Of a stretch of 64,000 nt of DNA, positions 1,124-62,667 are shown piece by piece (position 1 is the first letter of the stretch; every line of letters starts with the position of its first letter). The notes beneath the pieces were generated by a model, which did no database searches, had not been told where the DNA came from, and saw only the letters and a program-made list of their open reading frames with translations. Position numbers and translations under genes: made by a program. Origin of the DNA: a bacterium (GTDB lineage: Bacteria > Patescibacteriota > Minisyncoccia > UBA6257 > 2-01-FULL-56-20); the NCBI GenBank assembly GCA_027310625.1, contig DAIDAM010000002.1, positions 1,123 through 65,122 on the forward strand. The letters are read 5' to 3'.

Positions 1124-1191
1124 TTATCAAATCTGAAATCTTAAATCTGAAATCTGAAACCTTTCAAATTTCGTGCTTCAAATTTCGGATT

Positions 1192-3789
1192 TTAAATTAC
1201 AACTATTCCGGCAATTTTGTCTCCCTGTTTGAGGTTCATTATCCTCACTCCCTGCGCCGAGCGCCCCGTTGTCCTCACGTCGGAAATTTTCGTTTTTATC
1301 ACCTGCCCTTTTTCCGAAAGCGCCAGAAGTTCGGTCTCGCCGGAGATTACCCGCAGAGAAACGAGATGGCCGGTTTTTGCGGTAATGTTCGCCGTTTTTA
1401 TTCCCGAGCCGCCGCGGTTCTGAATTTTGTATTCTTTGAGCGGCGTCTGCTTGCCGAAACCGTTCGCCATCACCGCCAAAACCTTTGTCTCTGGTCTCTG
1501 GCCGCTTGTCTCTTTTCTAATTATATCAAACCCTGCGACCTCGTCGTCTTTCTTCAATTTTATCGCGCGCACGCCGGCGGCGGTTCGGGACATCGGGCGC
1601 GCCTGATTTTCCTTGAAGCGTATCGCCTGTCCGTTTTTCGTTCCGAGAATCAGCTGGTCGTTCCCGCTTGAAAGGCGAACCCACTTCAGCGCGTCGCCTT
1701 TCTTTCCGCCAGAGGCGGATCCGCCTTGGGCGGATAGCTTTATGGCGATGATTCCCGTCCGCCTGATGTTTTTGAAATCCTCCAACTTCGTTTTTTTGAT
1801 GACGCCGTTTTTGGTAATCATCATTAAATACGCGGACCGACGCTGACTTAACGCTGACTCTCGCGGACTTTCTCCACTTCCGCGTTGTTCTGCGTTCAGT
1901 CCGCGCTTGTCTGCGTAGGAGACCACGGCGCTGACGTTCTCGTCCGCCGGCAGTTCCAAGAAATTGTGTATCGCGCGTCCTTTGGAAACGCGGCTGGCGG
2001 CGGGGATTTCGTAAACCTTCGTTTGAAAAACTCTTCCTTTGTCGGTGAAGAAAAGAACGTTGTCGTGCGTGTGGGCGGCGAAAAACTGCGAGATGAAATC
2101 TTCTTCGCCGACCTCCGAGCCGATGAGTCCTTTCCCTCCGCGCTTTTGCGTCCTGAATGCGCCCGGCGGCAGACGTTTGATGTAGCCGCTCGCCGAGAGC
2201 GTTATCACCGCTTCCTCTTCGGGAACCAAGTCCTCTTCGCTGAAAGTTTTCACTCCGCCGGCGACGACCGCTGTTTTTCTCCCGCCCTCCCAAATTTTGC
2301 CGCTTGCCCCACTAAATTTGCTTGGCAAATTTTGAGGGGTGAATGAAACTTGGGAGGGTGAACCGCCGTATTTTTCCTTCAGTTCCGCCACTTCCTTTTT
2401 TACGATGCCGACGATTTTCGCCGGGCTTTTCAAAATGATGCCGAGTTCCTTTATGAGTGCGAGTTTTTCCTTCAGTTCGTCCTCGATTTTTTGTCGTTCG
2501 AGAGCGGCGAGCGTCTGCAGTTTCATTTCGAGGATGGCGTTCGCCTGAATTTCGCTCAACTTGAATTGTTTGACGAGGTTTTGGTGCGCGTCGTTTCTGT
2601 CCTTAGATTTTTTTATCGTCGCGATGACTCTGTCTATTGAACCAAGCGCCTTATGAAGTCCTTCAAGAATGTGCGCCCGCTCCTCCGCTTTTTTCAGTTC
2701 AAACTCCGTCCGTTTTCTGACGACTTTTTTTCTGTGTTCGAAATACGCCGAGATGACGTCTTTTAAAGTCATCAGCTGCGGTTGGATGCCGTCCGCGAGC
2801 GCAATCATATTCATATGAAAATATTTTTGAAGGTCGGTGTGCTGATAAAGTTGATTCAGAACTTTCTGCGGATTGGCGTCGGTTTTGAGCTCGATGACGA
2901 TGCGCAGTCCCTCGCGGTCGGATTCGTCGCGGATGTCGCGTATCCCCTCGATTTTTTTGTTCTGCACGAGGTCGGCGATGTGTTTGATGAGTTCCGCTTT
3001 GTTTACCTGATAGGGAATTTCGGTGACGACGATGTCGTATTGCCTGTTTTTTCTTTCCTGAATGTCGGTTTTCGCCCGCGTCAGAATCGGCCCCTTGCCG
3101 GAAACGTACGCTTCGCGAATCGCTTTCTGGTCGAAAATTATTCCGCCAGTCGGAAAGTCGGGACCCTTGATGAATTTCAGAAGGTCGTCGGAGTCGGCGT
3201 CGGGATTGTCGGCGAAGTAAATCACGGCGTCGGCGACTTCCCCGATGTTGTGCGGCGGAATGTTCGTCGCCATGCCGACGGCGATGCCCACCGTGCCGTT
3301 CAAAAGGAGATTGGGGAGTTTCGCCGGCAGAACTTTCGGTTCCTGCCTCGTGGTGTCGTAGTTCGGCTGCCATTCAACCGTTTCCTTTTCAATATCCGCG
3401 AGCATTTCCTCGCTTATTTTGGAAAGTTTCGCCTCCGTGTATCTCATTGCCGCCGGAGCGTCGCCGTCAACGCTGCCGAAATTTCCCTGACCGGTCACAA
3501 GGGGATATCTCAGCGACCATTCCTGAACCATTCTCGCAAGAGTGTCGTAAATGGAAGCGTCGCCGTGCGGATGGTAGCGGGCCATGGTTTCGCCGACCAC
3601 GTTCGCGGACTTTCTCGTTTTGGCGAGATGCGTCAAGCCGCTGTCCCACATCGCCCAGAGAATTCTTCTCTGCACCGGCTTCAGTCCGTCGCGGACGTCG
3701 GGCAGAGCGCGGCTGACGATGACCGACATCGCATAGTCGAGGTACGATTCCTGAAGCTCCGTTGTTATTTCGCGTTTTTGAATGGGCAT
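1192..3789 (-). CDS. gyrA: DNA gyrase subunit A
   Basis: 865 aa. The N-terminus has [26 protein letters not shown] and [10 protein letters not shown], which are catalytic-region hallmarks of GyrA, and the C-terminal pinwheel repeats are present. Confidence 0.95.
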
Positions 3790-3868
3790 AGATTAGACAT
3801 TAGACATCAGTTATCAGACATCAAAAGTTATTCTAATTACTGATTACTGATGACTGATTATTATTAAC
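3790..3868. repeat. ~78-bp ATCAG/CTGAT-motif hairpin-forming intergenic repeat, copy 1
   Basis: Sequence gattagacattagacatcagttatcagacatca...ttactgattactgatgactgatta. The two arms are imperfect reverse complements. It is near-identical to 4166-4238. Confidence 0.6.
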
Positions 3869-4165
3869 TCAGGGCTTAATGATGTAACTCGTCGGCTGAA
3901 GAATGAAATCAACGACGCTTTTTATCGCGCCGCCGATTGTTTTTACCACTATCGCAAGACCGGCTTTGAACGTTTCAAAAAAGGCGAGCCCGTTGCCCCC
4001 TCCAATGTTTTGCTGTTCCGCCGGGCTCACAGGACCGAGAAGGGAGTTGAAATACTTCAGCCACAAAAAAACTACCACCGCTATCGCCACGCCGGAAAAT
4101 ACAAAAAGCCATTTCCTTTTTTCGGCGTCGTCGCTTTCCTGAATTTTTTTCAAAAAATCGTTCAT
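3869..4165 (-). CDS. small membrane protein, hypothetical
   Basis: 98-aa ORF with one hydrophobic helix (FVFSGVAIAVVVFLWL), located between gyrA and the MBL hydrolase gene on the same strand. Confidence 0.45.
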   Translation of the reverse strand: MNDFLKKIQESDDAEKRKWLFVFSGVAIAVVVFLWLKYFNSLLGPVSPAEQQNIGGGNGLAFFETFKAGLAIVVKTIGGAIKSVVDFILQPTSYIIKP

Positions 4166-4238
4166 TTTAGATTAGACATCAGACATCAGTAATCAGACAT
4201 TAGAAGTTTTAACCCTGATTTCTGATGACTGATTACTA
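4166..4238. repeat. ATCAG/CTGAT-motif intergenic repeat, copy 2
   Basis: Sequence gattagacatcagacatcagtaatcagacat...ctgatttctgatgactgattactattaac. It aligns with 3790-3868 along its whole length. Confidence 0.6.
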
Positions 4239-4799
4239 TTAACTGGCTTTCAGTATCACCGCCTTGTTTTTCATATTCTCCAAATCCTTTTTCTTGAAGA
4301 CGAATTTTTCCTGAACATCCGCTTTCTGCCCGAGCGCTTTTGCGAGCGCATCGGGCTTTTTTGAAAAGCTCGGTATCACCGCCGCCGGTTCCATTTTTTT
4401 CACGAGCTTCGCCGCGTCTTCCTCCGACAAAAAATGTTCGCCGACGGGAACGAAAAGCACGTCCTGTTCACTCAATTCTTCGGCGATTTCCGGTTCCAGT
4501 CCGTTTGAAAGATGGCCGAGAAAAACGAAACTTAAACCCTCCCATTTCACGAGATAAACCGACTTTATGAATTTCGCGGTTGATTCTTTCGTCACAGGCC
4601 AGCCGCGCACCTGCATGTCTTTTGCTTCATATTCTCCCGGGAAACCGATTTCGTTTTCAGTGGGCATTTCCGCCTCCGGCGAAGCGATCGTCCTTAAAAC
4701 AACGTCGCCTTTGAGGCGGTTGCTGTTCGGGTCAACAAGAAGCGAAACATCCCCGCTCTGCAATCGGAAACACCCGTCGCCGAAGTAATTGATAACCAT
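4239..4799 (-). CDS. MBL-fold metal-dependent hydrolase (UlaG/UPF0173-like)
   Basis: 186 aa. The N-terminal GDGCFRLQSGDVSLLVDP is a typical metallo-beta-lactamase-fold start. Confidence 0.6.
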   Translation of the reverse strand: MVINYFGDGCFRLQSGDVSLLVDPNSNRLKGDVVLRTIASPEAEMPTENEIGFPGEYEAKDMQVRGWPVTKESTAKFIKSVYLVKWEGLSFVFLGHLSNGLEPEIAEELSEQDVLFVPVGEHFLSEEDAAKLVKKMEPAAVIPSFSKKPDALAKALGQKADVQEKFVFKKKDLENMKNKAVILKAS

Positions 4800-13376: not shown

Positions 13377-13487
13377 AAATCAGCATTAATCAGCCGCTAT
13401 CCGCATAAATCAGCGTCAAAAGTATTATTTCAGCCCTGAACGCTGATAGATGCTGATTTAGCCGATTGATGCTGATACGATGAATCA
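13377..13487. repeat. ATCAGC/GCTGAT-motif repeat cluster in the pnp 5' region
   Basis: Sequence aaatcagcattaatcagccgctatccgcataaatcagcg...gctgatagatgctgatttagccgattgatgctgatacg. The same motif grammar recurs at 27650-27770 and 40941-41023. Confidence 0.6.
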
Positions 13488-15590
13488 ATGACTAGAAAAC
13501 AATACACAACTGAAGTCGGCGGAAAAACGCTGACCATTGAAATCTCTCCTCTCGCAGAACAGGCAAACGGCGCCGCGCTCGCGAAATACGGCGAAACAGC
13601 GGTTTTGGTGACCGCGGTTATGGAAAAAAGGGAGGGCGATTTTGATTACGTCCCGCTCAAGGTTGACTACGAGGAAAGATTTTACGCCGCCGGAAAAGTT
13701 ATCGGTTCCAGATACATCAGGCGCGAAGGCCGTCCGTCGGAGGAAGCGGTTTTGTCGGCGCGGCTTGTGGACCGCGTCATCCGCCCGCTTTTTGACGAAC
13801 ACATCAGGAACGAAATGCAGGTGGTGGCGACCGTCCTCGCCTACGACGAGGAAAACGACCCCGACTTTGTGGGGCTGATGGCGGCGTCGATCGCGCTCGG
13901 AATCTCGGACATTTCCTGGAACGGGCCGGCCGCGGGCGTGCGCGTCGCGAAAATCGGCGGAAAAATCGTCGTCAACCCGACCTCGTCCGAAACAAAAAAC
14001 CCGGAGTGCGAGATGGAAATGTTCGCCGCCGGACCGAAAGGGAAAATAAATATGATTGAGCTCGGCGGGAAAGAAATTTCCGAAAAGGAAATCGTCTCGG
14101 CTTGCGAGGCGGCGCAGAGAGAAATAGACGAACTCATTCACTTTCAGGAAAAAATAATAAAGGAGAGCGGCAAGAAAAAAGCGGCCCTGAAACTTTTTGA
14201 AGTGGACGCGGAGTTTCGCGCCGAAGCGGAGAAATTTTTGAGAGAAAAAATCGAAAGCGCGATTTACAAGCCGAACAAGCTTGAATACACGGAGGCGATG
14301 GCCAACCTAAAAGCGGAGTACTTCGCCTTTATTTCCGCAAGCGAAAAGTTCGACGGCCGCTCGGCGAATCACGTCTGGGAAGAAGTCATTTGGGAAGTTG
14401 TCCAGAAAAACATTTTGGAAAAAGACAAACGTCCGGACGGCAGAAAACTCGGCGAAATCCGTAAGCTCGACGGCGAAGTGAAACTTTTCGAAAGGACGCA
14501 CGGCTCGGCGCTTTTTATAAGAGGCAACACGCAGACGCTCGCCGTGACGACGCTCGCCGCTCCCGGGGCGGAGCAGTTCATCGAGACGATGGAATTTACG
14601 GGCAAGCGGCGGTTTATGCTTCATTACAACTTTCCGCCTTATTCCGTCGGCGAAATCGGCTCTTTCCGCGGGCCGGGCAGGCGCGAAATCGGGCACGGCG
14701 CACTCGCGGAAAAAGCGCTCCGCTCCTTAATTCCTTCGCAGGAGGAATTTCCTTACACCGTCCGCGTCGTCGCCGAAACTCTTTCATCCAACGGCTCGTC
14801 TTCGATGGCGACGGTTTGCGCCTCCGCGCTTTCCCTGATGGATGCCGGCGTACCTCTCAAAAAACCGGCGGCGGGAATCGCAATGGGGATTGTGGAACGA
14901 CCAGCGACCAGCGACCAGCGACCAGAATATAAAATTTTAACGGACATTCAAGGTCCGGAGGATTTTTACGGCGGAATGGATTTCAAGGTCGCCGGCACGA
15001 GAGACGGCGTGACGGCGGTGCAGTTGGACGTCAAAATCCGCGGGCTCACTTCCGAAATGATTGAAAAAACTTTGGCGCAGGCAAAAGAGGCGCGCCTGCG
15101 GATACTTGATTTTATGAACGGCGTTTTGCCGTCGCCGCGCGAGAAACTTTCCGGCTACGCGCCGACGATAATCCAGCTCCGCATCAATCCCGAAAAAATC
15201 GGCGCCGTCATTGGTTCCGGCGGCAAGGTGATTAACGGACTAATCGAGAAATACAAACTATCGAGCATTGACATTGAAGAGGACGGCCGTGTTTTCATTT
15301 CGGCGGTTGACCGCGAACGCGCGGAAACGGCACTTGGCGAAATAAAAGCGTTGACGCGGGAATACAAAGTCGGCGAAATCGTCGAAGGCAAAGTTGTGAA
15401 ACTTCTGGATTTCGGAGCGATTGTCGATTTAGGCGGCGGCAAGGACGGGATGATCCACGTTTCTGAACTCAAGAATGGTTTCGTTAAAACCGTTAATGAA
15501 GTCGTCAAAGTCGGTGATTTCGTACGCGTGAAAGTGATTCGCGTTGACGCTGACGGGCACATCGGACTTTCGCTGAAGCAAATGGAGTAG
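13488..15590 (+). CDS. pnp: polyribonucleotide nucleotidyltransferase (PNPase)
   Basis: 700 aa with two RNase PH-like domains plus KH and S1 domains. The N-terminus MTRKQYTTEVGGKTLTIEI is typical. Confidence 0.95.
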   Translation: MTRKQYTTEVGGKTLTIEISPLAEQANGAALAKYGETAVLVTAVMEKREGDFDYVPLKVDYEERFYAAGKVIGSRYIRREGRPSEEAVLSARLVDRVIRPLFDEHIRNEMQVVATVLAYDEENDPDFVGLMAASIALGISDISWNGPAAGVRVAKIGGKIVVNPTSSETKNPECEMEMFAAGPKGKINMIELGGKEISEKEIVSACEAAQREIDELIHFQEKIIKESGKKKAALKLFEVDAEFRAEAEKFLREKIESAIYKPNKLEYTEAMANLKAEYFAFISASEKFDGRSANHVWEEVIWEVVQKNILEKDKRPDGRKLGEIRKLDGEVKLFERTHGSALFIRGNTQTLAVTTLAAPGAEQFIETMEFTGKRRFMLHYNFPPYSVGEIGSFRGPGRREIGHGALAEKALRSLIPSQEEFPYTVRVVAETLSSNGSSSMATVCASALSLMDAGVPLKKPAAGIAMGIVERPATSDQRPEYKILTDIQGPEDFYGGMDFKVAGTRDGVTAVQLDVKIRGLTSEMIEKTLAQAKEARLRILDFMNGVLPSPREKLSGYAPTIIQLRINPEKIGAVIGSGGKVINGLIEKYKLSSIDIEEDGRVFISAVDRERAETALGEIKALTREYKVGEIVEGKVVKLLDFGAIVDLGGGKDGMIHVSELKNGFVKTVNEVVKVGDFVRVKVIRVDADGHIGLSLKQME

Positions 15591-15592
15591 CG

Positions 15593-15653
15593 AGCGACCA
15601 GAGACCAGTGACCAGAGACCGGAAACCAGAGACCAGAGACCAGTAACTATATC
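15593..15653. repeat. GACCAG-family simple-sequence repeat cluster downstream of pnp
   Basis: Sequence cgagcgaccagagaccagtgaccagagaccggaaaccagagaccagagaccagtaac. Confidence 0.6.
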
Positions 15654-18706: not shown

Positions 18707-20851
18707 TTATTGCTCTAGAGAAGTATCTTTGCTGATATATACTTCTCTTGGTTTAGCGCCTTCGCCGGGACCGATGATGCCTTTTTCCTCCATTAAATCA
18801 AGGAGGCGCGCGGCGCGAGCATACCCGACCTTTAGGCGCCTTTGGAGAAGAGAAGCCGACGCTTTTTGCGCCTGTCTCACCACTTCCACCGCCTCATCGT
18901 ACATTTCGTCGCCGTCCTCTTCAAGCGAGTCGTCGAAAAGCGAAACGCCGCCGTTGCCGTTCCCGTTTTCTGCCGCGAATTGTATTTCTTCTTCGGCTAG
19001 AGCGGCATTGTTTTCGCGGATGAAATCTGCGACTTTTTTCGTTTCTTCTTCCGAAATATAGGCGCCCTGGATGCGTTTCGGTTTGGAAAGTTCGGAGGAG
19101 ACAAAAAGGAGGTCGCCCGCGCCGAGAAGTTTTTCTGCGCCGGAGGTGTCAATGATTGTTCTTGAATCAACCTGGCTTGCGACCTGAAGAGCGATTCTCG
19201 ACGTGATGTTTGCTTTGATTAAGCCGGTGATGATTTCCACCGACGGCCTTTGCGTCGAGAGAACGAGATGAATTCCCGTCGCCCGCGCCATCTGCGCAAG
19301 CCGGACAACAAACCCTTCCACTTCGCGTCCGTAGGAGGTCATCAGGTCGGCGAGTTCATCAACGATTATCACTATATAAGGAAGTAATTCATCGCTGTTG
19401 GCTGTTGGCTGTTGGCTGTTGGCTTTGCCATTGTAGCTCTTGATATCGCGGCTGCCGGATTTTTGCAAAAGCTCGTATCTTTTTTCCATTTCCTTTATCG
19501 CCCAGCGGAAAACGGCGAGCGCTTTTTTGTTTTCGACAATCACCGGGCTGACGAGATGCGGAATGCCTTCGTAGATGGAAAGCTCCACGCGCTTGGGGTC
19601 GAGCATAATCAGTTTCAGCGTCGTCGGCGAATTTTTATAAAGCAGCGAAACAATCAGCGACTGAATCATTATTGATTTGCCGCTGCCCGTGGAACCCGCT
19701 ATCAAAAGGTGCGGCATCTTCTCGAGGTCGGCGAAAATCGGTTCGCCGGTAACGTCGCGTCCGAGCGAAAATCCGAGAAGCCCGGAGGAATTGAATTCCG
19801 GATACGCCATCAAACTGCCGAGCCGGACGAGCGCCGCCGCTTTGTTCGGCACTTCGATGCCGACGAGAGATTTCCCGGGAATCGGCGCTTCGATTCTTAT
19901 CGGGTGAGCGGCAAGAGCGAGCGCGAGGTCTTGATTTAGCGCCGTGATCCGCGACAATTTCACCCCTTCGGCGGGCTTGAGCGTGTAGCGCGTTACCTTG
20001 GGACCGATATTTATCTCGCCCATTTCCACGGGGATGCCGAAGCTGTCCAATGTTCTTTTGATGATGTTCGCGTTCGCGCGGAGGTCGCCGGTGGTGGGTT
20101 TTTCTACGGAGGATTTCAAAAGCTCGAGTGGCGGAGGAACATAATTTGCGAAGCTCGGGCGCGGCGTTCTCCTCGCTTTTTTAACCGGCTCCGATTTCGC
20201 CGCTTCCGGCCTCGGCTCGGGAATTTCCTCTTCCTTTTCTTCCTGTTCCTTTTCGGCGGCGGCGATTTTCTTTTCTTCAACGGGCGCAAGGAGCGGCGCC
20301 CCTTCCGGCGCGGATTTCTCCGGCCATTTTATTTTCAGCGGAGCGTTCAGCGTCACGAGTATCGCCGAGACGAAAATTATCGAGTTAATTATTATCGCGG
20401 CGAGATTGCCGAAGGGGATTTTGAGCGAACCGAGAATCACTCCGAGCCAGCCGCCGTTCCCCGAAGTAGCGATATCAATTAGGCCGAGCGCCGAGAGCAT
20501 CATCAGAAAGCCGCCGAGGAGCGTCATGCCGACGAACAATTTTTTCTCCGAAATCAGGAATACGCCCGCGACCGCAAGAAGTATTGTCGGCAGGGCAAAA
20601 TATCCCAATCCCAAAAGCGTTTCAAAAATTCCGAGAAGAAATTCTCCGCCGGGACCAGCTTTATGAAATCCGGCGAGAAAAAAAATTACGGCGAGTCCCA
20701 CGAGCGCAACCGCCCAGATGCTCCGCTTCGTTTCCGGATGGAGACGGTGTTCTTTCGCGCGTTTGCCCCCGCGGTTGCCGCCGCGTTCCGCGACATCGCG
20801 CCCGTTTTTATCACCGTTGTTTCTCGCCATTTCTCTAAAAGTATATTTCAT
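18707..20851 (-). CDS. ftsK: DNA translocase FtsK
   Basis: 714 aa with N-terminal transmembrane helices, a Pro/Glu-rich linker and the FtsK/SpoIIIE ATPase (LIAGSTGSGKSIMIQSLIVSLL). Confidence 0.9.
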   Translation of the reverse strand: MKYTFREMARNNGDKNGRDVAERGGNRGGKRAKEHRLHPETKRSIWAVALVGLAVIFFLAGFHKAGPGGEFLLGIFETLLGLGYFALPTILLAVAGVFLISEKKLFVGMTLLGGFLMMLSALGLIDIATSGNGGWLGVILGSLKIPFGNLAAIIINSIIFVSAILVTLNAPLKIKWPEKSAPEGAPLLAPVEEKKIAAAEKEQEEKEEEIPEPRPEAAKSEPVKKARRTPRPSFANYVPPPLELLKSSVEKPTTGDLRANANIIKRTLDSFGIPVEMGEINIGPKVTRYTLKPAEGVKLSRITALNQDLALALAAHPIRIEAPIPGKSLVGIEVPNKAAALVRLGSLMAYPEFNSSGLLGFSLGRDVTGEPIFADLEKMPHLLIAGSTGSGKSIMIQSLIVSLLYKNSPTTLKLIMLDPKRVELSIYEGIPHLVSPVIVENKKALAVFRWAIKEMEKRYELLQKSGSRDIKSYNGKANSQQPTANSDELLPYIVIIVDELADLMTSYGREVEGFVVRLAQMARATGIHLVLSTQRPSVEIITGLIKANITSRIALQVASQVDSRTIIDTSGAEKLLGAGDLLFVSSELSKPKRIQGAYISEEETKKVADFIRENNAALAEEEIQFAAENGNGNGGVSLFDDSLEEDGDEMYDEAVEVVRQAQKASASLLQRRLKVGYARAARLLDLMEEKGIIGPGEGAKPREVYISKDTSLEQ

Positions 20852-24845: not shown

Positions 24846-26261
24846 ATGCAGAGAATTTACCTCGATTACGCCGCTTCCACGCCCGTTGCGCCGGAAGTGG
24901 AGCGGGCGATGCGCCCGTACTTTATAAAAGAGTTCGGCAACGCCGGCTCACTCCATTCTTTCGGACAGAAAGCGATGGCGGCGATTGACGAGTCGCGCGA
25001 AACGATTGCAAAAGCCATCGGCGCGGATTTCCGCGAAGTGATATTCACCGCCTCGGCGACCGAGAGCAATAATATTGCTCTCCGCGGAATAACGCAGACC
25101 GCACGCAGAACAACGCGGAATTTTTTCAGCGTGAGTCCGCGTACAGTCCGCGTAAGTCCGCGGCCGAGATTAATAATCTCGGCAATAGAACACGAATCCG
25201 TTCTTGAAACAGCGCGCGACCTAGCCGCCCCCTTTATCAATAAAAATGGGGCGAGCCTCGCCCCTCCAGGGCGGGAGAAAGACGGCGTGGAAGTTGTTTA
25301 TCTGCCGGTTTCCAAAGGCGGCATTGTTGATTTGAAAAAACTCAAGGAGTCACTAAACGAACGGACGATTTTGGTTTCGGTGATGTACGCCAATAACGAG
25401 ATTGGAACCATTCAACCAATCGCGGAAATTTCAGAAATAATCAGAAATTTCCGAGAGACCAGGGACCAGCGACTAGCGACAAAGGGAAAAGACTGGTCTC
25501 CGGTTTCTGGTCTCTATCCTCTCTTCCACACCGACGCCGTCCAGGCATTCCAGTTTCTTGATTGTGATGTGAAAAAACTCGGCGTCGATTTGATGACGCT
25601 TTCGGCGCACAAAATTTACGGACCGAAAGGGATCGGAGCGTTATATGTTCGAAGTTCGGCGTTCGGAGTTCGAAATGAAAAAGACAATCGAACAATTCGA
25701 ACCTCGAACCTCGAACCGATAATTACCGGCGGCGGCCAGGAATTCGGGCTTCGCTCCGGAACGGAAAACGTCCCGCTCATCGTCGGTTTCGCGAAAGCCG
25801 TTTCGCTCGCCGCTAAACTCCGCGAGAAGGAATCAAAAAGAATCGGAGACCTCCGCGATTATTTATGGAGGGAGTTGAAAAAGATTTATCCACCTGCGCA
25901 GGTTAACGGTCAATTTTCATCAACGAATAACGAATCAATTTCGAATAAACGAATTCGTGAATTCGGGACGAATTCGCTATTCGCCGATATTCTTCCGAAT
26001 TTTCTGAATGTTTACTTTCCCGACTACAAGGCGGAGGACCTGCTGACGCGGTTTGATTTGGCGGGCATTGCCGTTTCCGCCGGTTCGGCATGCGCGGCGC
26101 GTTCGACCGAGCCGTCCTATGTCATAAAAACCCTTGTTTTGGGGATGAAACAACCCAGCCGCAGTATTCGTATTACTTTAGGGAGGCCGACGAGCAAAAA
26201 AGACATTGACATAACCCTAAAATTGGCTAGAAAATTATTTGCCACCAATGCCAGGCGGTAG
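24846..26261 (+). CDS. cysteine desulfurase (IscS/NifS family) carrying several repeat-derived in-frame insertions
   Basis: N-terminal YLDYAASTPVAPEV, the PLP-lysine region SAHKIYGPKGIGALYV and the active-site loop SAGSACAARSTEPSYV. It is 471 aa against about 400 aa for typical members. The extra segments map onto repetitive DNA at 25131-25163, 25454-25513, 25646-25718 and 25921-25989. Confidence 0.8.
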   Translation: MQRIYLDYAASTPVAPEVERAMRPYFIKEFGNAGSLHSFGQKAMAAIDESRETIAKAIGADFREVIFTASATESNNIALRGITQTARRTTRNFFSVSPRTVRVSPRPRLIISAIEHESVLETARDLAAPFINKNGASLAPPGREKDGVEVVYLPVSKGGIVDLKKLKESLNERTILVSVMYANNEIGTIQPIAEISEIIRNFRETRDQRLATKGKDWSPVSGLYPLFHTDAVQAFQFLDCDVKKLGVDLMTLSAHKIYGPKGIGALYVRSSAFGVRNEKDNRTIRTSNLEPIITGGGQEFGLRSGTENVPLIVGFAKAVSLAAKLREKESKRIGDLRDYLWRELKKIYPPAQVNGQFSSTNNESISNKRIREFGTNSLFADILPNFLNVYFPDYKAEDLLTRFDLAGIAVSAGSACAARSTEPSYVIKTLVLGMKQPSRSIRITLGRPTSKKDIDITLKLARKLFATNARR

Positions 26262-27649: not shown

Positions 27650-27770
27650 GCCGTAGAATATCGGCATAAATCAGCCCGCATCGGCATTTATCAGCGTTAA
27701 AAGTTCGGCGACATAGTTCCACGCTGATTTATGCTGATTGTTGCGGATAGATGCTGATAAATAAACTAAA
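27650..27770. repeat. ATCAGC/GCTGAT-motif repeat cluster in the clpB 5' region
   Basis: Sequence cggcataaatcagcccgcatcggcatttatcagcg...gctgatttatgctgattgttgcggatagatgctgataaat. Confidence 0.6.
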
Positions 27771-32317: not shown

Positions 32318-32772
32318 TATGCCCCGTAAGAAATAGTTATGTTTTATGTCTATATTTTACAAAGTGAAAAAGACGGCAAACTATATGCAGGGTTCACATC
32401 CGACCTCAGAAAAAGATTACTAAAACATAACTCCGGCAAAGTATTTTCAACGAAGTCGCGCAGGCCACTCAAATTAATTTACTGTGAAGTATGCACCAAT
32501 GAGCAAGATGCAAAACAACGAGAAAAATATTTTAAGGCGGGGGCTGGCAAGAAATTCATCAAAAACAGACTGAGAAATTATTTTCAAGGCCATATTATGA
32601 CATCAACAAAAATATTTTAGTTTCTTACGGGGTATGCCCCGTAAGAAATGGCGAGAAAATGAAAAATATTTTTGAGCAAAGATTAAGGAATATCAAATAT
32701 GAAATCGATAACTGAATATTGTAAGGTCGGGCTGATGTCAACAAAAATATTTTAGTTTCTTACGGGGTATGC
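32318..32772 (+). mobile_element. composite hairpin-element locus: CCCCGTAAGAAA inverted repeats precisely bracketing a GIY-YIG gene, followed by an empty tandem copy
   Basis: Left half TATGCCCCGTAAGAAATAG (32318-32336). Full 12-bp-stem hairpin TTTCTTACGGGG-TATG-CCCCGTAAGAAA (32621-32648) directly after the GIY-YIG stop. Right half TTTCTTACGGGGTATGCC (32755-32772) supplies the ATG of the next gene. Confidence 0.5.
32339..32620 (+). CDS. GIY-YIG nuclease family protein (small YhbQ/URI-domain type)
   Basis: 93 aa with FYVYILQSEKDGKLYAGFTSDLRKRLLKHN, the GIY...YIG motifs with the conserved R and N. Confidence 0.8.
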   Translation: MFYVYILQSEKDGKLYAGFTSDLRKRLLKHNSGKVFSTKSRRPLKLIYCEVCTNEQDAKQREKYFKAGAGKKFIKNRLRNYFQGHIMTSTKIF

Positions 32773-33509
32773 CAAAAACCATTCAGGAGGAATTCCTTTA
32801 TAAGAAGGTTTATGAATTCAGCTACGCCACTTTGAGAATATCCTCATCGGCAAAGAACAGGGAAGTTGCCGAAATTCTCGAAGGCAGGGCATTTTCGCTG
32901 CTCAATTCCGTTTTGACTGCCGATTACAGTAAAACGAGCGACACAGTTAATTCCATAATCAGTATTTCGGGCTTGTTGGTTGACGGCGGATTTCTTCATC
33001 CTGCAAACAAAGAAATACTTCAGAGGGAATCGGAAAGCATCCATCTCGCGATAAAAGCTTTGCCGAAGAAAAAAGAAGTTCTCCAAGATCTTGGTCTCGG
33101 AAAAATATTTTCAAAATCGCCATTGCCGAAACGGCAAATTGTCGATAAACCCGTGAAGCAGGTCCAATCGGCAATGGGCAATGGCGAATCGGAAATTTCC
33201 GATAAAACCGTTGCCGATAAAATTTCCGATGGAATTTCCGATAAAAACTCTTTTAAATACGAATCGGAAAAACGGCAATCGGCAATAATCGGCAAATTGC
33301 GACAAGTTGAGAATTGCCGATTAAATGATCTACAAGCACTTTTCCCGAACATAAGCGACAGGACGCTTCGTTACGATATAGAATCGCTTATCTTAAAAGG
33401 CGTGGTTGAGAGGGTGGGAAGCAGGAGAAACAGCGTTTACCGGCTTAAAAACACTTTCGGAACGGCCATAGAACTGCCGGCTTCTTCCTCGCCGGTCCGG
33501 ACGGCGTAA
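32769..33509 (+). CDS. hypothetical protein with a C-terminal winged-helix DNA-binding-like segment
   Basis: 246 aa. The C-terminus NDLQALFPNISDRTLRYDIESLILKGVVERV resembles a DeoR/wHTH fold, and the N-terminus weakly resembles the four-helix-bundle family. Confidence 0.45.
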   Translation: MPKTIQEEFLYKKVYEFSYATLRISSSAKNREVAEILEGRAFSLLNSVLTADYSKTSDTVNSIISISGLLVDGGFLHPANKEILQRESESIHLAIKALPKKKEVLQDLGLGKIFSKSPLPKRQIVDKPVKQVQSAMGNGESEISDKTVADKISDGISDKNSFKYESEKRQSAIIGKLRQVENCRLNDLQALFPNISDRTLRYDIESLILKGVVERVGSRRNSVYRLKNTFGTAIELPASSSPVRTA

Positions 33510-37431: not shown

Positions 37432-37461
37432 AAGGGGCCCCGCAAGGGGCCTTTTAGTTTT
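37432..37461 (+). terminator. rho-independent terminator of the surface-protein gene
   Basis: AAGGGGCCCCGCAAGGGGCCTT followed by TTAGTTTT. Confidence 0.6.
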
Positions 37462-37577
37462 GATAAACATTGATAAATTTAGATAAAGATTGAGAAAGAT
37501 TGTGACGCTAATTGATTGACGAGTTGTGGCAAAAAAGATAAAAATGGATAAAAATTGATGACATAGACTTATATGAT

Positions 37578-37940
37578 TTGGAAGTTTACAAATTGAGCAA
37601 AGAAATTTCCAAAGAATGCTGGGAAATTTATAAGAAGCTTGACTGGCAAACGAGGAAAACAATCGGTGACCAGTTTATATCTGCAATTGATTCAATTGGC
37701 GCCAATGTCGCGGAGGGCTTCGGAAGGTTCCATTATTTAGACAGGAATAAATTTAACTACAACGCGCGAGGTTCGCTCTTGGAATCTTTGCATTGGGTTG
37801 ATTTGCTGAAAGACCGTGGTTTTATCAGTAAAGAAATCCATGCAAACTTGAACGGAAATTTAAGGACGCTTATGGTAAAGCTGAATAACTACATAGTTTC
37901 TACGAAGAATAAAAACAAGGAGAAAAGCAAAGTTCTCTAA
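37578..37940 (+). CDS. four-helix-bundle protein of the Avd / 23S rRNA intervening-sequence protein family
   Basis: 120 aa with SIGANVAEGFGRFHYLDRNKFNYNARGSLLES, the family signature. Confidence 0.8.
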   Translation: MEVYKLSKEISKECWEIYKKLDWQTRKTIGDQFISAIDSIGANVAEGFGRFHYLDRNKFNYNARGSLLESLHWVDLLKDRGFISKEIHANLNGNLRTLMVKLNNYIVSTKNKNKEKSKVL

Positions 37941-37994
37941 CAACATTTACTCAACATTTATCTACTTTTATCTATGTTTATCTTTATTTGACTT

Positions 37995-42972: not shown

Positions 42973-43017
42973 ATTCGCGAATTTCATTCTACATTCTATA
43001 TTCCAAATTCTCAACTA

Positions 43018-55212: not shown

Positions 55213-55590
55213 ATGATTAAAGGTAAAAATAAAAAAAGAGGACAGGCGATGATTTTAAGCGTTCTAACCCTCGGGACGGTGATGCTCGGTGCCTCCGCCA
55301 TCGCCGGCTTCCTCGCGATTTATCAAATTAGGTCGTCGTGGGACGCGGCTAATTCCGCGAAAGCGATTTTTGCCGCGGACACCGGAATTGAATGGGGACT
55401 TTACAAGTATTCCAAACCAACCTCAACAGCGCCCGCTCCGGTAATGTCCAATGGCGCTTACTATTCGGTTGTATGCTATGATTCGTCGCTCAATTCGATT
55501 GATTGCAGCAGCAGCGCCTCCGTATCTTTAATCAGGTCTTCCGGTCGTTCTTCCAATTCCAACCGCTCGTTTGAGCTGGGCATAAAATGA
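55213..55590 (+). CDS. minor pilin-like protein (PilX-like)
   Basis: 125 aa with an N-terminal hydrophobic helix after RGQAMILSVLTLGTVMLGA. Confidence 0.4.
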   Translation: MIKGKNKKRGQAMILSVLTLGTVMLGASAIAGFLAIYQIRSSWDAANSAKAIFAADTGIEWGLYKYSKPTSTAPAPVMSNGAYYSVVCYDSSLNSIDCSSSASVSLIRSSGRSSNSNRSFELGIK

Positions 55591-57656
55591 AAGGCGAGGA
55601 GAAAAGAAAAATTTCTTTAAGCGCCGCAAAAGAAAGAATAGAACACCTCAAAAAGGCGATAAAAAAATACAGGTACGAAAGATTGGTTTTCAACAAAGAA
55701 ATTATTTCACCGGAAGCGGAAGATGCCCTCAAGAAAGAACTTTTCGATTTGGAGGAGAAATTTCCGGAACTTATGACATCCGATTCGCCGACCCGGCGCG
55801 TCGGCGGAAAGCCGCTCCAGCAATTCAAAAAAGTGCGCCACGAGGAGCGCATGCTCTCGTTCAACGACGCTTTTTCGGGAAAAGACGTCGAGGACTGGCT
55901 TGGAAGGGTTTCGAATTATCTCGGAAGAAAAATCGCCGGCCCGTTTTACGCCGAGCTCAAAATTGACGGCCTCGCGATAGAACTTGTCTACGAAAACGGG
56001 ATTTTTGTTGAAGGTTCAACGCGCGGCGACGGCGAAATCGGCGAAGACGTAACGCAGAATCTCAAAACCATCGAAGCGATACCGCTGTCGCTAGACATCA
56101 GACATCAGACATCAGACATCAGAATCCCCGAACGTTTGGTTGTTCGCGGCGAGATTTTCTTGAACAAAAAAGAATTCGAGGCGATAAACCGCGAGCAGAA
56201 AAAAATGGGATTGAAAACTTACGCCAATCCGCGGAATGTCGCCGCCGGCTCGGTGCGCCAGCTTGACCCGAAAATAACCGCCAGCCGAAAACTCGATTCT
56301 TTTCAGTACGATATAGTCACAAATGTCGGCCAGAAAAAGCACAGCGAGGAGCATGAAATTCTCCACAAACTCGGCTTTCACACCAATCCGAACAATAAAG
56401 TTTGCGAGACGATAAAAGACGTTTTTGAATTCCACGATTACTGGAACAGGCATCGGGAGAAACTTCCTTACGAAATAGACGGCATCGTCATAATAGTTGA
56501 CGACAACAAAACTTACGATTCCGCCGGCGTCATCGGCAAAGCGCCGCGCGCCGCCATCGCTTACAAATTCTCTCCCAAGGAAGCGACGACCGTCGTTGAA
56601 AACATAAAAGTGCAGGTGGGGAGAACCGGGGCGCTGACGCCCGTCGCCGTTATGCGTCCCGTGCAGGTCGGCGGCGTGACGATTACGCACGCCACGCTTC
56701 ACAACGCCGACGAAATAAAACGGCTCGGTCTCAAAATTGGCGACACCGTCATCGTCAGCCGCGCGGGCGACGTCATTCCGCAGATAACAAGAGTTTTGAA
56801 AGAAATGCGGACGGGAAAGGAAAAGGAATTTGAAGTGCCGTCGCATTGCCCAATCGACGGCTCGAAACTTGTTCAGGACGGAGCGATTTTAAGATGCTCG
56901 AGCAAGACCTGCGCCGCGCGCCACAGGGAATCGCTTTATCACTTCGTTTCCCGTCCCGCTTTCGATATCCGCGGGCTCGGGCCGAAAATCATCGACAGAT
57001 TTTTGGATGAAGGTTTGATTTCGGATGCCGCCGACATCTTCGAACTTAAGGAAGGCGACATCGCGGCGCTCGAAAGATTCGGTGAAAAATCGGCGGAAAA
57101 TATCGTCGGCGAAATCGAAAGCAGAAAAAAAATTTCTTTGAGCCGCTTTATTTTTTCGCTCGGAGTTTTGCATGTCGGCGAGGAGACGGCGAATGTGCTT
57201 ACGCAACATATAGCATATAGCGTATCGCATATTGCAAAACCAAATGACATTTATAAAGCATTTCGCGGTTTGTCGCTTGAAAATCTGCAGGAGATTCGCG
57301 ACATCGGGCCGAAAGTGGCGCAAAGCATTCACGATTGGTTCCGCGAACAGAGAAACATAAAACTACTCGAAAAACTCGGGAGAGTTGGAATAGTGATAAA
57401 AAGCGACCAGCGACCAGCGACCAGCGGTAAACTCAAGGGAAAAACTTTCGTGCTCACCGGCGGACTGGAATCGCTAACTCGCGACGAAGCGAAAGAAAAA
57501 ATCCGCGAGCTCGGCGGCGACGTATCGGAATCAGTCAGTAGAATGATATCTTACGTCGTCGCCGGCAGCGAACCGGGGTCGAAATACGAAAAAGCACAAA
57601 AATTAGGCATCAAGATAATTTCGGAGAGAGAATTTCTCAACATTTTGAAGGGTTGA
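55587..57656 (+). CDS. ligA: NAD-dependent DNA ligase
   Basis: 689 aa with the adenylation KxDG motif (ELKIDGLA), Zn-finger cysteines, HhH and BRCT domains. Confidence 0.95.
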   Translation: MKGEEKRKISLSAAKERIEHLKKAIKKYRYERLVFNKEIISPEAEDALKKELFDLEEKFPELMTSDSPTRRVGGKPLQQFKKVRHEERMLSFNDAFSGKDVEDWLGRVSNYLGRKIAGPFYAELKIDGLAIELVYENGIFVEGSTRGDGEIGEDVTQNLKTIEAIPLSLDIRHQTSDIRIPERLVVRGEIFLNKKEFEAINREQKKMGLKTYANPRNVAAGSVRQLDPKITASRKLDSFQYDIVTNVGQKKHSEEHEILHKLGFHTNPNNKVCETIKDVFEFHDYWNRHREKLPYEIDGIVIIVDDNKTYDSAGVIGKAPRAAIAYKFSPKEATTVVENIKVQVGRTGALTPVAVMRPVQVGGVTITHATLHNADEIKRLGLKIGDTVIVSRAGDVIPQITRVLKEMRTGKEKEFEVPSHCPIDGSKLVQDGAILRCSSKTCAARHRESLYHFVSRPAFDIRGLGPKIIDRFLDEGLISDAADIFELKEGDIAALERFGEKSAENIVGEIESRKKISLSRFIFSLGVLHVGEETANVLTQHIAYSVSHIAKPNDIYKAFRGLSLENLQEIRDIGPKVAQSIHDWFREQRNIKLLEKLGRVGIVIKSDQRPATSGKLKGKTFVLTGGLESLTRDEAKEKIRELGGDVSESVSRMISYVVAGSEPGSKYEKAQKLGIKIISEREFLNILKG

Positions 57657-61098: not shown

Positions 61099-62667
61099 TT
61101 AATATAAATCGGGCGCCGTAGCTCTCTCGTAATATTGTCCGAGTCCGAGAATTTCGTGGTCTTTCCATTGCCTGCCGATGAGTTGAAAACCGACCGGCAT
61201 CCCTTCCTTCCCGCCTGCGCCAAGGCTTTGGCGAGCAGGTTTTTCACGAACTGGAAGCGAAAGCGACGGCAAACCGGCGAGGTTCACGGGCACGGTGAAA
61301 ATATCTTCGAGATACATCGCCAGCGGGTCGCTCGTTTTTTCCCCGATTTTGAACGCCGTTCCGGGCGTAGTTGGGGCGAATATTACGTCAACGTCTCTGA
61401 AGGCGTTTTCAAAATCATTTTTTATTATGCTCCGCACTTGCTGCGCTTTTTTGTAGTAGGCGTCGTAATACCCCGACGAGAGAACGAAAGTGCCGAGGAT
61501 AATGCGGCGCTTGGCTTCCGCTCCGAATCCCCGCCCCCTCTGTCGGAAATAAATTTCCTCCAGCGCTGACATACGCGGACTTAACGCTGAATCTCGCTGA
61601 ATTTTTTCCGCGTTATTCCGTGTTCCGCCTGCGTTAGTCCGCGCGTTATGCGCAATGCGCGCATAACGAATGCCGTCAAACCGAGCAAGATTCGAGCTCA
61701 CTTCCGCCGGAACAATGATGTAGTAGCACGAAAGAGTGTATTTCGTGTGCGGCAGAGAAATTTTTTTGAATTTTACTCCCATGCTTTCAATTGTTTTCCT
61801 CGCCGTTTCGACGCATTTTTTAACTTCCTCGCTTACGCCTTCGACGAAATATTCTTCCGGGACGCCGACGACGAGATTTTTTATTTTTTCAAACTCCGGC
61901 TCGAGTATTTTTTTGTCGCTTCCGTTCGGCCCGTCGGCGCTGGTGGCATCGAGCGGGTCGCGTCCGCGGATGGCGTTGAAAATTATCGCGGCGTCCTCCG
62001 CGGTTTTTGCCAGCGGTCCGATTTGGTCCAAGCTTGACGCCATAGCTATCAAGCCGGAACGGGAAACGGCGCCGTAAGTCGGCTTGAATCCGACGACGCC
62101 GCAGAACGCCGCCGGCTCGCGTATCGAACCGCCGGTGTCGGAGCCGAGCGCGCCGAGCGCAAGATTCGCTGCAACTGCCGCCGCCGAACCGCCGGAAGAA
62201 CCGCCCGCAACCCGTTCCAAATCGTGCGGATTCCTCGTTATTTTGAAGGCGGAGTTTTCCGTTGAAGAGCCCATGGCGAATTCGTCCAGATTCGTTTTTC
62301 CGAGGAAGACCGCTTTTTCGGCTTTCAGTTTTTGAATCACGCCGGCGTCGTAGCTCGCGACGTAATTTTTGAGAATTTTCGACGCCGCGGTCGCCGGCTG
62401 GCCTTTTATTAAAATATTGTCTTTTATCGCCAGCGGAACGCCGGCAAGGAGACCGATTTCGTCGCCTTCGGCAAGCGAAACGTCAACGGCCTCCGCCTGG
62501 CGAAGCGCCTCCTCCTCATTCGCGCTCAAATAGGCGCCAATCTTTCCGTCGCGCTCCTTTATTTCGCCGAAGTACGCCTCGGCGATTTCAAGCGCGGAAA
62601 ACTCCTTTTTAAGGAGACCTTCGTGGAATTTTCCGATGGTGAGATTTTGCAAAGGTATATGAGCCAT
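61099..62667 (-). CDS. gatA: aspartyl/glutamyl-tRNA(Asn/Gln) amidotransferase subunit A
   Basis: Amidase signature GGSSGGSAAAVAA...GSDTGGSIREPAAFCGVVGFKPTYG. It is 522 aa and carries a repeat-derived insert. Confidence 0.9.
   Translation of the reverse strand: MAHIPLQNLTIGKFHEGLLKKEFSALEIAEAYFGEIKERDGKIGAYLSANEEEALRQAEAVDVSLAEGDEIGLLAGVPLAIKDNILIKGQPATAASKILKNYVASYDAGVIQKLKAEKAVFLGKTNLDEFAMGSSTENSAFKITRNPHDLERVAGGSSGGSAAAVAANLALGALGSDTGGSIREPAAFCGVVGFKPTYGAVSRSGLIAMASSLDQIGPLAKTAEDAAIIFNAIRGRDPLDATSADGPNGSDKKILEPEFEKIKNLVVGVPEEYFVEGVSEEVKKCVETARKTIESMGVKFKKISLPHTKYTLSCYYIIVPAEVSSNLARFDGIRYARIAHNARTNAGGTRNNAEKIQRDSALSPRMSALEEIYFRQRGRGFGAEAKRRIILGTFVLSSGYYDAYYKKAQQVRSIIKNDFENAFRDVDVIFAPTTPGTAFKIGEKTSDPLAMYLEDIFTVPVNLAGLPSLSLPVREKPARQSLGAGGKEGMPVGFQLIGRQWKDHEILGLGQYYERATAPDLY

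Follow-up and report, generated by a model that had tools for sequence, protein, structure and literature searches.

A 64,000-nucleotide stretch of a bacterial genome (contig DAIDAM010000002.1; hereafter the window) carries tandem arrays of seven-nucleotide units in the middle of genes for essential enzymes, among them pnp, which encodes polynucleotide phosphorylase (PNPase), ligA, which encodes NAD-dependent DNA ligase (LigA), and ftsK. We consider it fairly likely that these arrays are heptanucleotide microsatellites, similar to the long simple sequence repeats (LSSR) and STRR elements (short repetitive sequences repeated in tandem) of other bacteria, which turn over rapidly and are filtered by the reading frame and by the tolerance of protein loops. 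The repeat process is probably non-adaptive. As judged from alignments of related genomes, a few tolerant loops have been struck repeatedly across Parcubacteria with different units. Moreover, the arrays decay, are overwritten without change of length, and pass between near-identical strains by recombination of short patches.

The nearest relatives of the PNPase and LigA of the window (77-81% identity) come from metagenome-assembled genomes (MAGs) labelled Candidatus Liptonbacteria, Paceibacterota or Patescibacteria, and each of the two proteins is a singleton when clustered at 90% identity; exact look-ups of both returned no contig on record. The host is a tiny, uncultured, groundwater-type member of Ca. 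Liptonbacteria (Parcubacteria, candidate phyla radiation (CPR)) with a small genome. The analysis covers 64 kb of this genome, and copy numbers in a MAG are consensus values.

Arrays were located by Tandem Repeats Finder and an exact scan. The exact scan returned six perfect tandem repeats of period 7 with at least three copies and none of periods 4-6 or 8-15. When two mismatches were allowed per 14 positions, the window contained 19 near-perfect segments of period 7, compared with 0.3 in Markov shuffles and 0-3 segments for other periods, which corresponds to a density of about 0.3 arrays per kb. Twelve of the 19 segments lie within protein-coding genes and seven are intergenic. In agreement with an LSSR/STRR-like class, the units are arranged head to tail in at least about three copies, period 7 is commoner than chance and than other unit lengths, and units recur within the 64 kb (GACCAGN at seven loci, AGACATC at three). 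An assembly artefact was rejected, given the intact, in-frame genes and the presence of equivalent arrays across numerous assemblies and samples that are independent of one another. An Rfam scan of the window returned only three tRNAs, and the arrays belong to no described RNA family.

The original prediction, made from the letters of the window, had pointed to four coding arrays, one in pnp, two in ligA and one in ftsK. All four were found, with the encoded peptides as quoted, in host genes that are full-length and intact by NCBIfam. It also listed intergenic arrays at 3790-3868, 4166-4238 and 15593-15653, which were recovered with the last one ending at 15647, and an intergenic GTCTCTT x3 at 63495-63520, which is in fact TTGTCTC x3.6 at 63508-63532 within a murD-like open reading frame (ORF) on the minus strand. 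Further arrays in gyrA, the cysteine desulfurase gene and murD had been overlooked. Among the coding arrays that had not been flagged are a decayed one in gyrA, three in the cysteine desulfurase gene, at least four in murD and one in ORF 32769-33509.

Since seven is not divisible by three, each array is translated in all three phases successively and yields a seven-residue cycle (RPATSDQ, RHQTSDI and QQPTANS). The repeat is a feature of the DNA and not a protein repeat. A seven-residue repeat at the protein level was rejected, because the DNA period is 7 and not 21 and the same units occur between genes and in both orientations; the DNA-level origin that had been proposed is thus supported. 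The units are stop-free in every phase on the coding strand, while five of the seven intergenic units contain stops, and the imperfect CATATAG array of ligA has a mutation in its third unit at precisely the place where an in-frame TAG would fall. Excision of hairpin inserts at the RNA level is unlikely, given that all of them keep the frame and lack stops. Genic arrays persist only in tolerant loops and linkers, on the stop-free strand and where the net change in length is a multiple of three. The number of copies is not what preserves the frame: the flagged arrays measure 28, 31, 25 and 31 nt (pnp, ligA site 1, ligA site 2 and ftsK, respectively), lengths divisible by neither 21 nor 3, and their copy numbers are likewise no multiples of three, so that the proposed multiples of 21 nt and frame-keeping copy numbers do not hold.

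In PNPase, the array peptide (residues 470-480) falls in a coil (471-480) between strands 462-470 and 481-485 of an AlphaFold2 (AF2) model, where the predicted local distance difference test (pLDDT) score is 63, compared with about 90 on either side. Three solved PNPases (5yjj, 5xex and 9qh3) are six residues shorter at this loop, as had been anticipated for other PNPases. Between GIAMG and YKILTDIQG the loop measures 13 residues in the window versus 8 in the five closest genomes and the majority of Parcubacteria, a net change of +5 aa (+15 nt) relative to the nearest orthologues. Elsewhere the same loop is occupied by other units, including GACCAAC x4.9 (locus L005), GAACAAG (L016), CGACAAG (L080), GACAAGG (L008), GAGGAAA (L042) and CAACAAC (L061). 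Among 112 cluster representatives, loop length is 8 aa in 61, 9 aa in 11, 10-12 aa in 3 and 13-16 aa in 22; the distribution is bimodal with peaks at 8 and 15 aa, and all 12 loops of 15 aa have a peptide of seven-residue periodicity. On a neighbour-joining PNPase tree built with the loop left out, at least 26 changes between short and long loops are required. Two PNPases that are 99% identical outside the loop (P0008 and P0011) have loops of 18 and 47 aa, and two 90% clusters that lack a loop array (14 and 6 full-length members) show zero length variation.

The region upstream of pnp carries repeats of its own. In the leaders of pnp orthologues there are AAATC(G/A/T)T arrays with 3 units in L001 (9970-9990) and 7.5 units in L078 (1196-1248), an intergenic difference that is not a multiple of three. 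Where these leaders have heptamer arrays, the window has period-10 GCTGAT repeats. The sequence GCTGAT(A/T)nnAT, about 10 nt long, occurs there as four direct repeats just ahead of pnp (13442-13482) and does so again just ahead of clpB (27723-27758). They could represent a shared operator or a phased binding array.

LigA carries arrays at two sites. Site 1 (residues 169-182) is coil in the AF2 model with a pLDDT of 63, and the Escherichia coli enzyme (2owo) is six residues shorter there, in line with the earlier estimate of about six. Relatives at 64-78% identity have AAATTCC x4 at this site, an array that is perfect in L095 and L098 but decayed in L096 and L097. In the window AGACATC has taken its place, and the site is only 2 aa longer (+6 nt). 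Two LigA proteins that are 99.7% identical (P0168 and P0264) nonetheless differ by 20 aa at site 1. Site 2 (residues 606-614) is coil between the HhH and BRCT parts and measures 12 aa in all relatives, whether they have an array or none, including one with AGCGACA/AGCAACA x4.3 at the same length (L102). The net change is 0, and the site 2 array therefore overwrote existing sequence and was not inserted. A metagenome scan with LigA gave 14 loci, few of them close. On the orthologue alignment, the proposed insertion in multiples of 21 nt therefore does not literally hold in this genome (+5 aa in pnp, +2 aa at ligA site 1 and 0 at site 2). Nor are the arrays novelties specific to this lineage, as the same loops have arrays of other units in many Parcubacteria.

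Two further observations concern ligA. At LigA site 1 of P0149 (L102, 1632-1670) there is an octamer array, GAAACATC x4.7, which is in frame and gives a 24-nt, 8-aa cycle (ETSKHRNIETPK), so that unit length is not strictly seven. In one relative only, a LAGLIDADG-type ORF (L097, 12116-12736; weak Pfam matches) lies directly downstream of ligA.

The FtsK loop measures 15 aa in the window, 7-8 aa in more distant Parcubacteria, 16-17 aa in L001, L002 and L078, 22 aa with an AAGAGAC array in L003, and 33 aa in L039, which amounts to steps from 7/8 to 15 to 22 aa across lineages. In Pseudomonas FtsK the stretch before Walker B is even longer than in the window. Coil with low pLDDT in the AF2 models of PNPase and LigA and gaps in solved homologues place the arrays in predicted loops and linkers of essential proteins, in support of the original prediction. 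The positions of all features are collected in Table 1.

Table 1. Heptamer arrays of the window, the composites that contain them, and the host genes of the four flagged arrays
Feature	Position	Strand	Context
AAATCTG x5 array	1127-1163	.	Between convergent ends of ORF 667-1044 and gyrA; hairpin part
Decayed GACCAGA-type array	1487-1513	-	gyrA C-terminal domain
Composite: AGACATC-type array, loop, ATTACTG-type inverted array	3790-3868	-	Fills entire spacer before gyrA start codon
Second copy of the 3790-3868 composite	4166-4238	-	Fills spacer between ORF 4239-4799 and small ORF 3869-4165
pnp (polynucleotide phosphorylase)	13488-15590	+	Host gene; NCBIfam NF008805, 842 bits, full length
CGACCAG x4.0, perfect; peptide VERPATSDQRPEY / RPATSDQRP	14898-14925	+	pnp; turn of beta-hairpin, second RNase PH domain
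GACCAGA x7.9 array	15593-15647	.	Begins 3 nt past pnp stop codon
ftsK	18707-20851	-	Host gene; NCBIfam NF007615, 407 bits over motor domain; PDB 2iut
CAACAGC x4.4 (coding strand; GCTGTTG on +); peptide ANSQQPTANS	19394-19424	-	ftsK; variable loop before Walker B strand
Inverted pair GACCAG / CTGGTC arrays	25455-25520	+	Cysteine desulfurase gene 24846-26261; in ~21-aa insertion vs PDB 4r5f
Inverted pair GTTCGGA / TCGAACC	25647-25721	+	Cysteine desulfurase gene; 15-aa insertion
CAATGGG x3, imperfect	33164-33185	+	Inside ORF 32769-33509
CATTCTA x4, imperfect	42983-43011	.	tRNA-Arg/tRNA-Gly spacer
ligA (NAD-dependent DNA ligase)	55587-57656	+	Host gene; NCBIfam NF005932, 780 bits
AGACATC x4.4, perfect; peptide LDIRHQTSDIRIP / DIRHQTSDIRI	56093-56123	+	ligA site 1; adenylation-domain loop
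CATATAG, imperfect; peptide HIAYSVSHIA	57205-57228	+	ligA
AGCGACC x3.6, perfect; peptide SDQRPATS	57402-57426	+	ligA site 2; HhH-BRCT linker
GTGACCA x4 (63220-63249) + GGTCTCT x3 (63313-63334), opposite orientation	63220-63334	-	Flank conserved helix of murD-like gene
GTGACC-type array + TTGTCTC x3.6 (63508-63532)	63470-63536	-	Together an 18-aa murD insertion, absent from five relatives

Related loci amounting to 1.55 Mb gave the same picture, with 123 segments of period 7 compared with 11-20 for other non-triplet periods and 66 for period 6; 44 of 100 related loci had no period-7 segment at all. Intergenic DNA has a relative excess of the arrays (46 of 142), with coding and intergenic assignment made by ORF length alone. 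By a rough measure of length, intergenic arrays drop monotonically from three units (30, 12, 2...), whereas coding arrays are longer (43, 32, 19). An intrinsic preference for four units was therefore rejected as evidence of mechanism. PNPase, LigA site 1, LigA site 2, FtsK and MurD all present the same site filled with different units across Parcubacteria, and in MurD the sites are shared among relatives while the units are genome-specific. The favoured step across lineages is three units (21 nt, 7 aa). The 21-nt quantum of the original prediction is therefore borne out across lineages (8 and 15 aa in PNPase; 7/8, 15 and 22 aa in FtsK), but not by the net changes in the host genome itself. A mechanism that adds three units at once, as had been suggested, is not required, since frame selection alone accounts for the quantum and intergenic arrays lack a four-unit preference.

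Turnover was also visible between strains. Apart from a patch of 130-185 nt centred on the PNPase loop, an alignment of L099 and L100 with L101 shows differences at about 3 of 6,600 positions (~99.95% identical). Within the patch (7900-8080 in L099), one allele has a perfect GAACCAG x4.6 array in a 15-aa loop, and the other an 18-aa loop with decayed heptamers. Adjoining synonymous sites differ too, which indicates that a divergent donor supplied a short tract by recombination. Several independent samples contain each allele, and the L099/L101 population was seen in at least 3 samples. The strain comparison for copy-number polymorphism that had been suggested, carried out in a related species, thus did reveal differing alleles, but they differ by a recombined patch and not by a unit step.

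Extreme homoplasy, together with strain-level replacement centred exactly on the loops, is what would be expected if selection favoured rapid loop change, for example as an escape from phage- or host-encoded inhibitors. We regard such adaptive hypervariability as very improbable: these are housekeeping enzymes of the cytoplasm, intergenic DNA is filled by the same repeats, and unrelated small palindromic elements enter the same loops as the heptamer arrays, which agrees with tolerance rather than with targeting. Phase variation, in which gain or loss of a unit would toggle genes, has even less to commend it and can practically be set aside. Non-triplet repeats in coding regions classically serve to switch contingency loci (introduction of PMC4692102), but the host genes here (ligA, ftsK, gyrA, murD and pnp) are single-copy and essential or housekeeping, the arrays occupy mid-gene loops and are not near the 5' end, and all alleles seen in relatives and strains are in frame.

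The distribution of units across unrelated loci bears directly on how arrays arise. With at most one mismatch, GACCAGnGACCAG has 18 matches in the window, in both orientations, at seven loci (gyrA, pnp, the pnp 3' spacer, cysteine desulfurase, ligA and two in murD), compared with 0.11 expected; AGACATC occurs in ligA and in the two intergenic composites. The claim that the same units sit at unrelated genic and intergenic loci is thereby confirmed. Isolated GACCAG hexamers are at chance level (19 versus 14 expected), and abundant seeds were therefore rejected as the source of the GACCAGN family. Overall, 11.8% of unit pairs within genomes but 7.1% of those between genomes differ by at most one mismatch (permutation p ~0.015). 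The window by itself gives 12.9% within and 2.9% between genomes.

We propose that slipped-strand or reiterative replication with a preference for 7-nt units would both create the arrays and make them homogeneous again, and that the GACCAGN arrays at the seven loci may be in contact through ectopic recombination or have a sequence bias in common. The encoded peptides would be passengers without a function of their own. Selection would admit only net changes divisible by three; since only such changes survive, a three-unit quantum would result and coding arrays would be longer than intergenic ones. Independent events would accumulate in the same loops, since an essential enzyme has few positions at which 5-7 additional residues are tolerated.

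Several points weigh against this proposal. Simple slippage is unable to extend a one-unit seed by three units at once, and in essential genes a step of a single unit shifts the frame; the proposal gives no account of how the perfect ligA, pnp and ftsK arrays arise or stay perfect. A perfect array was gained at LigA site 2 without any change of length, and the strain polymorphism observed is a recombination patch and not a copy-number step. Furthermore, one unit at seven unrelated loci, with singletons at chance, is not predicted by independent local slippage. The perfect four-unit arrays and the single family at seven loci keep alive the alternative that arrays are copied between loci.

According to that alternative, pre-formed arrays of ~28 nt, or inverted composites of 70-80 nt, are moved or copied between loci through ectopic gene conversion between old array sites or by a dedicated activity, and the arrays would be a very small propagating element. 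The seven-locus distribution and the excess of unit sharing within genomes agree with it, as does the identical perfect unit GACCAGC in pnp and ligA site 2. The composites at 3790-3868 and 4166-4238 are two copies of 75-80 nt that are roughly 80% alike by eye, the LigA site 1 unit was replaced by one that is also intergenic in the same genome, and the array at LigA site 2 overwrote the site with its length unchanged. However, the flanks of the GACCAGN copies, inspected by eye and not by a systematic search, show no conserved ends, conserved flanks or target-site duplications; phases and lengths vary among the copies, the window contains no candidate enzyme, and the four flagged arrays lack an inverted partner. 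Moreover, some 7% of between-genome unit pairs lie within one mismatch, compared with roughly 2% estimated for random 7-mers, and such a restricted repertoire across Parcubacteria means that a shared sequence or peptide bias could mimic spread. We see copying between loci as a possible but doubtful explanation. Slightly more doubtful is the general claim that Patescibacteria of the Liptonbacteria/Parcubacteria group possess an active process that writes or copies ~28-nt heptamer arrays between loci; it may be sequence-biased and perhaps templated, for example through ectopic conversion between array sites or through a dedicated polymerase or reverse-transcriptase activity. If such a process exists, the arrays would be among the smallest propagating elements and a general engine that remodels essential-enzyme loops in seven-residue quanta, on the time scale of strain divergence.

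Each of the composites at 3790 and 4166 spans the whole gap between consecutive minus-strand genes. The first folds as a hairpin at -21.6 kcal/mol (z -3.4) and the second at -25.4 kcal/mol (z -5.3); the murD arrays at 63220-63334 fold with z -6.0, and the pair at 25647-25721 at -29.3 kcal/mol (z -4.5). The hairpins of these four elements consist of 6-bp segments with a mismatch at every seventh base. By contrast, the solo array at 15593-15647 has no hairpin potential (z -0.1). No inverted partner was found within 200 nt of any of the four flagged arrays, and a hairpin or miniature inverted-repeat transposable element (MITE) nature was rejected for them on this ground. We suggest that intergenic copies often form inverted pairs whose hairpins lie against stop and start codons and might affect mRNA stability or translation.

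Such positions raise the prospect of a functional nucleic-acid motif, in which the arrays would be binding sites or structures for a protein that reads 7-nt periods, such as a single-strand binder of the S1 or cold-shock type, and would control the stability or translation of mRNA, with the genic copies as spill-over or signals for pausing. In its favour, intergenic arrays lie against stop or start codons or take up entire spacers, and the folding of paired arrays is much better than that of shuffles (z -3.4 to -6.0). Similar locations close to the ends of ORFs are reported for TAACTGA (PMC4679880) and GGGNATC (PMC4692102) repeats, and L095 and L098 share the perfect AAATTCC x4 unchanged, even though their LigA proteins differ clearly in identity to that of the window (76% and 64%). 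This idea is nevertheless improbable. The units vary widely among loci and genomes, so there is no single recognition sequence; moreover, the closest relatives lack arrays at the same loops, turnover and decay are fast, and solo arrays are unstructured.

Arrays of another period were seen as well. Period-10 (T/A)GATAAA arrays in both orientations (37460-37559 and 37957-37983) flank the small ORF 37578-37940 and precede a TPR protein gene at 37995.

The cysteine desulfurase (24846-26261) has 471 aa versus 382 aa in a solved IscS (4r5f) and contains five separate insertions, every one a hairpin-capable repeat composite. A second family of in-frame inserts, a palindromic element of 70-80 nt (roughly CGCGGACTnAACGCAGAACAACGCGGAA-loop-TCAGCGnGAGTCAGCGTTAAGTCCGCG; CGCGGA-type), is found at 1828-1905 (gyrA), 25089-25175 (cysteine desulfurase), ~61580-61670 (gatA) and 63590-63700 (murD) and encodes peptides such as IRVNPPNNPRKSA. 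Peptides of this type (QTNADK...PRKSA/PRESA) fill the PNPase loop of P0005, P0011, P0041, P0053 and P0074 and LigA site 1 of P0131. The family looks like a CPR counterpart of the Rickettsia palindromic elements (RPE). A 15-nt mini-palindrome, TCCGCCnnnGGCGGA, is inserted once or twice in frame as SAxGG or GGSASGG at 1696-1734 (gyrA) and 63930-63953 (murD), in the PNPase loop of L027 and in LigA of P0174 and P0186, thus recurring in loops of different proteins and genomes. The palindrome TTCGAA is scarce in the whole window (20 versus 70 expected), which suggests restriction-site avoidance; it nonetheless forms part of the GTTCGAA/TCGAACC arrays at 25647-25721.

STRR sequences in the strict sense belong to heterocystous cyanobacteria, with the units CCCCAGT, TTGGTCA and CAACAGT; they were reportedly described by Mazel in 1990 and are the classic case of heptanucleotide long simple sequence repeats. 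Two of these units, TTGGTCA and CAACAGT, presumably resemble GACCAAC and CAACAGC here. We rejected an assignment to cyanobacterial STRR sequences in this strict sense, because the host is a member of Ca. Liptonbacteria and the units differ by at least 1 nt. More broadly, heptanucleotide repeats are the most abundant class of long simple sequence repeats in many prokaryotes, and polymerase slippage has been blamed (Mrazek 2007, as related in PMC4679880). Like LSSR and STRR sequences, the arrays described here consist of head-to-tail 7-nt units, few per array, at many dispersed loci with few unit families per genome and with enrichment near gene ends, and the origin proposed for the former in the account of PMC4679880 is likewise slippage with a 7-nt preference. 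An STRR inside the RNase P RNA gene (Vioque 1997, by its title as cited in PMC2858038) would be a precedent for arrays tolerated at a permissive structural element of a functional gene. Unlike the classic LSSR cases, the arrays here are found in a CPR bacterium with a small genome, at a density that we estimate to be roughly ten times higher from counts quoted in PMC2700814, PMC4679880 and PMC4692102, and the majority of window arrays are coding, in frame and in essential enzymes whose loops are struck recurrently throughout the clade.

Other repeat families share some of these features. Geobacter metallireducens has elements of four tandem heptanucleotides (GGACCGG) within and between genes (Aklujkar 2009, PMC2700814). 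They resemble the present arrays in having about four units, but they form a single G+C-rich unit family, were read there as regulatory RNA, and were not analysed with respect to frame, protein location, orthologous sites or turnover. The GGGNATC repeats of Xanthomonas and Nostoc, for which about four units are preferred and G-quadruplexes were invoked (Rehm 2015, PMC4692102), and the TAACTGA repeats of Beggiatoaceae, Cyanobacteria and Bacteroidetes (MacGregor 2015, PMC4679880) also have heptamer units and positions next to stop or start codons, but are reported to be under-represented in coding regions. A G-quadruplex explanation, which calls for a tract of at least 3 G in each of at least four units, was rejected, as the units CGACCAG, AGACATC, CAACAGC and TTGTCTC have no G-tracts. 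The TAACTGA family was likewise rejected (4 occurrences in the window versus 3.9 expected, none tandem); the gyrA leader has only the related units UGAUAAC/UGAUGUC.

RPE are described as selfish DNA lying in frame within protein-coding genes (Ogata 2000, as summarised in PMC10969869). The likeness lies in small repeats that, in a reduced genome, sit in frame in unrelated housekeeping genes at fold-compatible positions (PMC10969869), and the inverted-array composites and the separate CGCGGA-type palindromic family behave in an RPE-like manner. However, RPE are ~100-150 bp long with conserved sequence and peptide, while the flagged arrays are pure tandem heptamers of 25-31 nt without an inverted partner or conserved flanks. 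Their sites are those of an RPE, in frame, on the surface and compatible with the fold, but a conserved inverted-repeat element of the RPE or MITE kind is absent from the four flagged arrays; the hairpin feature is present at 3790, 4166, 25455, 25647 and 63220. Terminal inverted repeats, target-site duplications or a parent transposase were not evident in the sequences read, although no systematic search was made. Our literature search found no paper that links heptamer repeats to CPR or Patescibacteria.

What sets the present arrays apart is their density, the in-frame colonisation of essential enzymes, the seven-residue quantum and the turnover at strain level. Non-triplet microsatellites are normally purged from essential coding regions, as each single-unit slip is a lethal frameshift. 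Here, perfect heptamer arrays sit in essential genes of a minimal-genome bacterium, and the same loops have been struck again across the clade. The mosaic patch that separates L099 and L100 from L101, with its many synonymous changes, serves as evidence that Patescibacteria recombine short patches with a divergent donor. If confirmed genome-wide, these findings would place CPR among the scattered lineages in which heptamer repeats abound, provide a natural experiment on loops of universal enzymes that tolerate 5-7 extra residues, and sharpen the question of why the unit is 7 nt and how arrays arise and stay homogeneous where only three-unit steps are viable. They would also caution those who annotate genomes or build phylogenies that loop insertions in CPR marker proteins derive from repeats, show homoplasy and recombine.

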